Origin: Candidatus Hermodarchaeota archaeon
GTDB taxonomy: Archaea > Asgardarchaeota > Hermodarchaeia > Hermodarchaeales > Hermodarchaeaceae
Direction of reading: 5' to 3'
Assembly (NCBI GenBank): GCA_016839365.1
Contig: JAEOUH010000008.1
Span: 1-57,922 of the forward strand
DNA: 57,922 bases
Shown here: positions 4,775 to 5,713 of the stretch, piece by piece
How positions within the stretch are numbered: the first letter of the stretch is position 1
Layout of the letters: every line of letters starts with the position of its first letter
The notes under the pieces: model-generated
Database searches by the model: none
The model's input: only the letters and a program-made list of their open reading frames with translations
Told to the model about the DNA's origin: nothing
Translations under genes and position numbers: made by a program

Positions 4775-5713
4775 TTGAGCACCACCCGATTAGGCCGTGT
4801 TGCAAAGGAAGCCTTGTTGCTTATCCGAAAGTTCATGAGCCAAGGAGACTTTAAACGCGCATCCGATGCTGCACTCAAAGCCGCTGAAGCCTTCAAGGAA
4901 ATAGCAAAACATTCTACTGGTTCCTCATCAAAGCTCGCCTATCGACGAGCAAGGACCCTTGTCGAAATCACCAAAGCCCTACGCCACGAAGAACCTCTCC
5001 CCATGCATCTAGTCGATGCCTTGGATAGCTTCTTCCCCGATGAGCAAGAACCAACAATATCTGCACCGGCCACCGATGATGAAGTTCCAGTTCCAAGTGA
5101 GGATCTCCACGAAGAACTGAAAACAGACGGCACCGAGGAACCTCCATCAGAATACCCAGAAGGGATTCGTTCAACATATCATCAACTCCTCAACGGCATC
5201 TCCATTGCCTGCACCCTTGTCGAGATGTTGGAACGCGCCTACCAAAGTATCCGAATCATGGTCCAAAACTTCACCGATGTCAAAACTATCACGGTGGGCA
5301 CCGAGTCCTGTGAAGTAAACTTACTCGACCGGTTGATCACAAAATCCAAGGAAGGCGTTAAAATTCGCATTATAATTCGGGAACCCGAAGCCTTCGGTGG
5401 CGCAGCTACACACTTTCAAGAAGCAGTCGAGACGCTACTCAATGATGCTCCTGCGATTGAGATATTGGTCTGTGCCCAAATGCATATCAAATCCGTTATC
5501 ATCGATGAATCTGAAGTCCTAGAAGGAAGTGCCAACTTCACCAATAAAGGTCTCTCAGGGATTGGGGAACAAGCCACATGGACCAATAACTCGGAATTCG
5601 TCAATCAGTTCATCGAACGGTTTGACCACTATTGGGTGCACCAAAGCTCCGAGTGTACAACCTGCAAGAACCGCACTTGTGAAGTCCATCCACTGACCCG
5701 ACGCACGCCCTAA
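4775..5713 (+). CDS. MIT-like three-helix domain + phospholipase D/nuclease domain (MITD1-like architecture)
   Basis: HxKxxxxD motif HIKSVIID followed by GSANFT; helical N-terminal ~70 aa; acidic Pro-rich linker; C-terminal CxxC-x4-CxxH. Confidence 0.75.
   Translation: MSTTRLGRVAKEALLLIRKFMSQGDFKRASDAALKAAEAFKEIAKHSTGSSSKLAYRRARTLVEITKALRHEEPLPMHLVDALDSFFPDEQEPTISAPATDDEVPVPSEDLHEELKTDGTEEPPSEYPEGIRSTYHQLLNGISIACTLVEMLERAYQSIRIMVQNFTDVKTITVGTESCEVNLLDRLITKSKEGVKIRIIIREPEAFGGAATHFQEAVETLLNDAPAIEILVCAQMHIKSVIIDESEVLEGSANFTNKGLSGIGEQATWTNNSEFVNQFIERFDHYWVHQSSECTTCKNRTCEVHPLTRRTP

Follow-up and report, generated by a model that had tools for sequence, protein, structure and literature searches.

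A possible ESCRT-III-tethered phosphodiesterase of Hermodarchaeia that joins a divergent MIT-like domain to an intact Nuc-type PLD domain

Closest Described Systems

Over 20 eukaryotic MIT proteins recruit enzymes to ESCRT-III (PMC9477494). In the papers on archaeal ESCRT consulted, the MIT appears only as the docking domain of Vps4/CdvC (PMC10936438, PMC7240154). MITD1 (MIT + MIT_C; 4a5x) consists of a MIT-type bundle, a linker and a single PLD-fold domain; it attaches to the tails of ESCRT-III and has a role in abscission (PMC9477494). The MIT_C domain carries an HDR motif and is also present in bacterial BrxL proteins (PMC12065111). Literature searches returned nothing on MIT+PLD proteins in Asgard archaea, on MITD1 together with Asgard archaea or on the fusion of Jordarchaeia described below, and the surveys consulted do not mention PLD.

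Nuc (Salmonella, 1byr), NucT (Helicobacter, 6ehi) and Zucchini/PLD6 (4ggj) are enzymes with a single HKD. Enzymes of this kind pair, two His/Lys sets forming one active site, and act through a phosphohistidine intermediate.

The gene considered here lies in a window (the whole stretch of DNA analysed) of 57,922 nucleotides from a Candidatus Hermodarchaeota archaeon, contig JAEOUH010000008.1. The initial annotation had ascribed to its product the architecture of MITD1. The order of MIT-type bundle, linker and single PLD-fold domain is indeed the same, but the PLD domain is of the PLDc_2/Nuc type with H-I-K, whereas MITD1 has MIT_C with HDR. The window protein also differs from MITD1 in its Cys4 site and divergent four-helix MIT, and its tethering to ESCRT is a prediction. 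With Nuc, NucT and Zucchini/PLD6 it shares the single-HKD fold and the catalytic residues (Z 15.9-17.6); unlike them, it has no signal peptide or membrane anchor and possesses a MIT-type domain on a long linker, a hairpin insertion and a C-terminal Cys cluster. The N-terminal domain has the three-helix fold of the Vps4/CdvC MIT (2w2u, 2v6y, PF04212) and is in register with it, but is fused to a non-AAA enzyme, falls below Pfam detection, carries an extra helix and has four characteristic residues (D, Y, Y, R) replaced.

Gene and Genomic Context

The open reading frame at 4775..5713 (+) is a real gene; it begins with TTG and encodes 312 amino acids. It belongs to a group designated clade A. An SD-like GAGGG precedes the start at 4764..4768 (+), and a purine-rich SD-like run is found 5-10 nt before the start codon in most of the 15 clade-A loci checked. 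At all 15 (window included), ATG, GTG or TTG stands at the same codon, so the TTG start is considered to be right. Public gene calls start at M21, 20 codons late, and give a protein of 292 amino acids, by which helix 1 of the N-terminal domain is cut off. The gene is apparently monocistronic, with ~250 nt free upstream and ~310 nt downstream. Scanning it for promoters and terminators gave no signal above chance.

The homologs (n = 46) show 51-100% identity to the window protein, and those bearing a name come from bins labelled Hermodarchaeota, Promethearchaeota or Thorarchaeota. Identity to the query is 76% in residues 1-73, 78% in residues 74-88, 77% in the PLD domain and 89% in the Cys tail, the most conserved part of the protein, as against 16% in the linker. 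Both folded parts are therefore under strong constraint.

The gene neighbourhood is conserved across the family; its genes give no functional clue, and no ESCRT gene is among them. Directly downstream in nearly all relatives lies the gene of a 586-aa protein with two winged-helix domains (6026-7786, +). It is followed by genes for a Mrr/YraN-like nuclease-fold protein (8135-8869, -), for a Roadblock/LC7 protein (8910-9323, -) and for a longin-like protein with ~81-96% identity in relatives (11040-12122, -), the latter two belonging to the same conserved block. A SNAP-like protein is encoded at 13244-13816 (+) (PF14938, 33.4 bits, above cut-off). A large membrane-anchored M28 peptidase is encoded upstream of the PLD gene (1510-4521, +); its position is variable, other genes being inserted or substituted at four loci (L044, L046, L048, L051).

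Domain Layout

The AF2 model contains helices at residues 3-22, 26-46, 49-70 and 77-85, then a linker and one PLD domain. The first three helices form a divergent MIT-type bundle (residues 3-70; 4781..4984, +), assigned from the model and from fold and profile searches. They bear out the three-helix MIT spacing described initially. Residues 1-73 are strongly basic (16 K/R vs 8 D/E). The bundle is followed by a conserved PLP turn and the fourth helix (residues 74-88; 4994..5038, +). This helix is absent from the canonical MIT, and the modelled domain is thus a four-helix bundle.

Residues 89-133 (5039..5173, +) constitute a disordered linker of unconserved sequence, with pLDDT below 50 at 89-132. 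It had been described as acidic and Pro-rich, and its composition (15 D/E, 2 K/R and 7 P) agrees with this.

The PLD Domain and Its Substrate

The remaining fold is a Nuc/NucT-type PLD domain at residues 134-290 (5174..5644, +), recognised from profiles and model and having a beta-hairpin insertion at 171-180. PLDc_2 (PF13091) matches it at 148-287 with 64.6 bits (cut-off 27), and the AF2 model holds one such domain, as the initial annotation had it. The catalytic motif, H237-x-K239-x4-D244-x6-G251-S252-x-N254 (5483..5536, +), was correctly recognised as kept. Across 41 homologs its residues vary hardly or not at all, and the same holds for E265 (5567..5569, +), which corresponds in the alignment to the conserved Glu in the PLD6/Zucchini NxE motif.

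Among solved structures, its alpha/beta fold comes nearest to NucT (Z 17.6; rmsd 2.1 over 142 aligned residues) and Nuc (Z 17.2; rmsd 2.2 over 145), with FAM83B and Zucchini next. A sequence search of solved structures ranks PLD6/mitochondrial cardiolipin hydrolase highest (E 0.0014-0.004). Among 22 members of the subfamily, NCBIfam matches are to DpdK in 21, DrmC in 19, NucT in 11 and cardiolipin synthases in at most three; the window protein itself stays far below every cut-off (DpdK 35.5 vs 100 bits, DrmC 30 vs 133 bits). Like DpdK and DISARM DrmC, its best NCBIfam matches, the window protein has a single HKD and is associated with nucleases. A role in a defence system was considered and rejected because of these scores and because the chromosomal gene order is vertically conserved within the family; the neighbours scanned include no defence or modification genes.

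The substrate of the predicted enzyme is probably nucleic acid, and phospholipid is a rather unlikely choice. The domain has a surplus of acidic residues (16 K/R vs 23 D/E), which is unlike the expectation for a free nuclease; for this reason, and because of the PLD6 matches, the lipid option is kept open. It would take the form of a tethered enzyme carrying out cardiolipin-type hydrolysis or transphosphatidylation and altering curvature at ESCRT-III sites. The acidic surface, the similarity to a cardiolipin hydrolase and the location of ESCRT-III on membranes speak for such an activity. It is nevertheless judged quite unlikely: nucleases supply the best folds and most of the family matches, PLD6/Zucchini itself acts as a nuclease on ssRNA, and the AF2 model of the window protein shows no membrane anchor.

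The Putative Zinc Site

The tail C294-x2-C297-x4-C302-x2-H305 (5654..5689, +) had been taken for a C-terminal Zn site. The Cys tail is real, and its three Cys are invariant in the subfamily, but H305 is conserved only in clade A. C233 (5471..5473, +), which precedes the catalytic His by four residues, is a candidate fourth ligand by subfamily alignment, being invariant together with C294, C297 and C302 across the wider Cys4 subfamily. Of 56 scorable domains, which are related rows and not an independent count, the Cys before the His and the three-Cys tail occur together in 50, both are missing from five, and one has the first only. Since C233 is kept with the three tail Cys and H305 is not, a Cys4 site is the better guess. 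The sequences thus suggest that the zinc site is probably C233/C294/C297/C302 and not the tail alone, with C233 in place of H305.

The N-Terminal Domain: MIT or Not

Pfam MIT (PF04212) finds no match in the clade A N-terminal domain even at E 10. In Foldseek, however, ranks 1-3 are MIT domains, led by the archaeal (Sulfolobus) Vps4 MIT 2w2u (TM 0.71-0.72 by query, E 0.08-0.27). In VIA, 2w2u reaches Z 10.6 (rmsd 2.0, 73 aligned), level with generic helical bundles, and the MIT of MITD1 (4a5x) is matched as well, with Z 9.8. AAA-ATPase N-domains, that of VPS4A among them, account for nine of the ten ESM Atlas neighbours. The MIT-like character claimed in the initial annotation therefore stands, with the qualification that the domain is divergent and that its conserved fourth helix had been missed.

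Profile comparisons point in the same direction. When the N-domain profile was run against 5429 ORFs of the genome, the best non-self match was the genome's own Vps4 MIT (7.4 bits, alone not significant). By hhalign, the Asgard Vps4 MIT scored 43%, the best non-self result of 177 windows and the only top-scoring match near full length. In three genomes of the sister genus, a divergent MIT+helix-4 domain of the same kind is joined to a transglutaminase-like domain whose Cys-His-Asp set appears intact (L024:525-1364, -; L025:1636-2469, -; L026:96-929, +; P0051). The window N-domain matches such a copy at 97%, and that copy matches the Vps4 MIT at 68% over 67 columns; pooling these copies as intermediates raises the hhalign value for the Vps4 MIT from 43% to 76.5%.

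Agreement with Vps4 columns is found at G24, A29, A36-A37-E38, K45, V63, E64, K67, L69 and R70. Four near-invariant residues of the Vps4 MIT are replaced: D by M21, Y by A33, Y by L62 and R by I65. The helix-3 positions kept presumably face the helix-2/3 (MIM1) groove and those changed the helix-1/3 side; the fourth helix may cover the helix-1/helix-3 face.

Two other folds come into question. A TPR was named beforehand as the fold that would speak against a MIT; the domain did not model as one, no Pfam TPR match was obtained, and the fold matches are MITs or up-down bundles. In an ESM feature search, unnamed and TPR clusters ranked above MIT with all scores under 0.9, which is uninformative. 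The domain could also be a generic four-helix bundle unrelated to MIT, its likeness to MITD1 being mere appearance. This would account for the missing Pfam match in clade A, for Foldseek E-values of 0.08 or worse and for the tie between MITs and four-helix bundles in VIA Z. The full-library search with the N-domain profile is also in line with it, as it returned a single transglutaminase fusion, two repeat proteins and no Vps4 besides members of the family. A generic bundle is nonetheless distinctly improbable, since MITs top two fold searches, the profile link to the Vps4 MIT is transitive through the transglutaminase-fused copy, and in Jordarchaeia a bona fide MIT stands at the corresponding place ahead of a related PLD. 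Derivation of the N-terminal domain from a Vps4-type MIT is held to be very probable.

Evidence Bearing on an ESCRT-III Link

The genome encodes Vps4 (contig C71) and two ESCRT-III proteins (contig C7), none of them near the clade A gene. One of the two ESCRT-III proteins ends in a MIM1-type helix, which has been reported at the C-terminus of Asgard Vps2/24/46 proteins (PMC7240154). In the N-terminal domain, V63, E64 and K67 of helix 3 and E38 of helix 2 match the Asgard Vps4 columns.

Residues 1-88 modelled by ESMFold2 with a 36-residue MIM1-type tail gave 0.53 against 0.02 for the best control, a weak result by the tool's rating. The runs agreed in at least 92% of contacts, and the partner pLDDT was at least 57. 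The mark is reached by 58 of 80 solved and by 2 of 110 mismatched pairs; only seven of the 80 solved pairs, and both mismatches, reach it with a score of 0.60 or below. Since MIT-MIM1 complexes have already been solved, the pass may stem from the model's memory of them. The complex model thus raises only slightly the odds that the N-terminal domain binds ESCRT-III.

The main rival to ESCRT-III tethering is that the MIT-derived domain was repurposed for another partner and that the enzyme acts outside the ESCRT pathway, for example in nucleic-acid turnover. The partner might be another MIM-like protein, the acidic linker of the protein itself, nucleic acid or a degenerate paralog. Four core or surface residues of the MIT are lost and a helix is added. 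The domain has its own invariant surface set (R8, E12, K45, H46, R58, K67), suggesting a separate ligand, and carries more positive charge than Vps4 MITs (+8.8 vs +4.9). The lack of ESCRT neighbours and the fusion of the same domain variant to a transglutaminase-like domain agree with repurposing as well. Against it stand the retained MIM1-face columns, the weakly supported complex and the existence of MIT-less relatives in a lineage without ESCRT matches. Repurposing is accordingly regarded as possible, although doubtful.

The lineage in question is family f25 (G292-G296; 5 genomes, 75-83% complete), where no Snf7, Pfam MIT or Vps4-like best match was detected and the Vps4 profile matched only proteins of Cdc48 and PAN size. 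The closest PLD relatives of clade A occur in this family and have no MIT. MIT-less PLDs in a lineage without ESCRT matches fit a functional link between PLD and ESCRT; being confined to a single lineage, the pattern counts as one event, and MIT-less members are present also in lineages keeping Vps4. Family f25 is a possible ESCRT-III-less Asgard lineage, the only such family among those searched.

Paralogs, Distribution and Phylogeny

In a sample of 400 Asgard genomes (~33 families), MIT+PLD fusions occur only in families f1 and f14 and make up three MIT-bearing groups. Clade A, whole or partial, is found in 16 of the 19 genomes of f1 (Hermodarchaeia, going by how relatives are labelled), in two of them as a fragment only. 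It co-occurs with a second group, clade B, in all 16; two further genomes have B only and none has A only. One bin with 6% contamination holds two clade-A copies (G108:C16 and G108:C45), possibly by strain mixing.

Paralog B of the window's genome (G000:C75:19364-20191; L153:7365-8192) has a MIT-like N-terminus and a PLD domain where HxK reads H-F-N and GSxN reads G-T-A-P. As its catalytic motifs are replaced, it looks like a pseudo-enzyme; it could heterodimerise with the window protein. Its gene is divergent from that of an XPB/Rad25-like helicase and stands beside longin-like, tRNA-synthetase and Rab-like GTPase genes.

All six f14 genomes (Jordarchaeia) have the third group. One of them, from Ca. 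Freyarchaeum deiterrae, is a single contig in the sample. Its protein (WXG41656.1, annotated as PLD-like only) has the same architecture as the window protein, belongs to the Cys4 PLD subfamily and keeps an intact HxK. Unlike the window N-domain, the MIT of Jordarchaeia is canonical and of Pfam grade (PF04212 score 35.9 vs cut-off 30), and it is followed by a short linker without helix 4.

Members of the Cys4 subfamily without MIT were found in families f25, f12, f7, f19 and others. Stand-alone Cys4 PLDs of ~170-190 aa (L037:3122-3661, L120, L161, L123, L154-L164) come from bins labelled Heimdallarchaeota and from others; some genomes hold several of them, with broken copies nearby. A 1331-aa protein ending in a Cys4-type PLD (L033:6819-10814, G143) is placed in the tree as sister to clade B and Jordarchaeia. 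By hhalign, no MIT-like signal is seen N-terminally in the relatives from f25 and G143 (under 1%).

In the trees, built without a bacterial outgroup (the stand-alone PLD query returned four archaeal loci), the Jordarchaeia proteins group with the degenerate clade B of Hermodarchaeia (99/90) and not with the window protein. Clade A groups with the MIT-less proteins of f25 (95/81; 81/81 in a second tree). A single origin of the MIT-PLD fusion is not rejected by the tree data (p-AU 0.124, long branches and fragments excluded from the test). The fusion could thus have been gained once and then lost in places, or gained twice.

The same data bear on the relation to MITD1. Clade A might be the archaeal ancestor (ortholog) of eukaryotic MITD1, the canonical HKD having been lost later. 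The shared domain order, the occurrence of MIT+PLD in two Asgard classes and the presence of 4a5x among the fold matches would be in line with such descent, which is still most improbable. None of 16 members matches MIT_C (PF16565) at E up to 10, and none of the 400 Asgard genomes reaches its cut-off. The Cys4 signature ties the clade A PLD to stand-alone archaeal PLDs, and the range of MIT+PLD is patchy. The PLD domain of MITD1 (2ymb/4a5z) is missing from the best 50 rows of either VIA search, where absence does not exclude closeness. Because the window PLD matches the PLDc_2/Nuc type instead of MIT_C, and because the HDR of MIT_C is shared with BrxL, the likeness is most likely convergence. 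The MIT+PLD layout of the window protein probably arose independently of human MITD1; as a tethered protein it may function in the manner of MITD1, but it is not assigned to the MITD1 family.

Proposed Role and Significance

The reading preferred here, held tentatively and falling just short of probable, is a dimeric, ESCRT-III-tethered phosphodiesterase that would more likely be a nuclease than a lipase. The protein would be a soluble housekeeping enzyme of Hermodarchaeia. From what is known of the family, its Nuc-type PLD domains would pair into a dimer with a shared active site. A structural Zn on C233/C294/C297/C302 may pin the tail beside the HKD loop. If the N-terminal domain keeps the helix-2/helix-3 (MIM1) face, the dimer would carry two MIT arms on flexible linkers of ~45 residues and could grip with avidity the MIM1 tails of polymerised ESCRT-III. 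Such tethering would bring the enzyme to constricting membrane necks, where the substrate might be, for example, DNA caught in the neck. Cutting trapped nucleic acid would be the most economical job for the enzyme, as Asgard ESCRT-III/VPS4 associate with chromatin (10.1101/2021.11.29.470303).

More broadly, a eukaryote-style MIT code could already exist in Asgard archaea, with a nuclease, a pseudo-enzyme paralog and a transglutaminase-like protein all recruited to ESCRT-III and the neck cleared of nucleic acid during division or vesicle release; this wider picture is speculative and, as it stands, unlikely. The window protein joins what is predicted to be a diverged ESCRT-III docking module to an intact enzyme of the nuclease/phospholipase type in Hermodarchaeia. 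If the fusions bind ESCRT-III, MIT-based recruitment of cofactors would be older than eukaryotes, and the pairing of MIT with PLD would have arisen at least two times.
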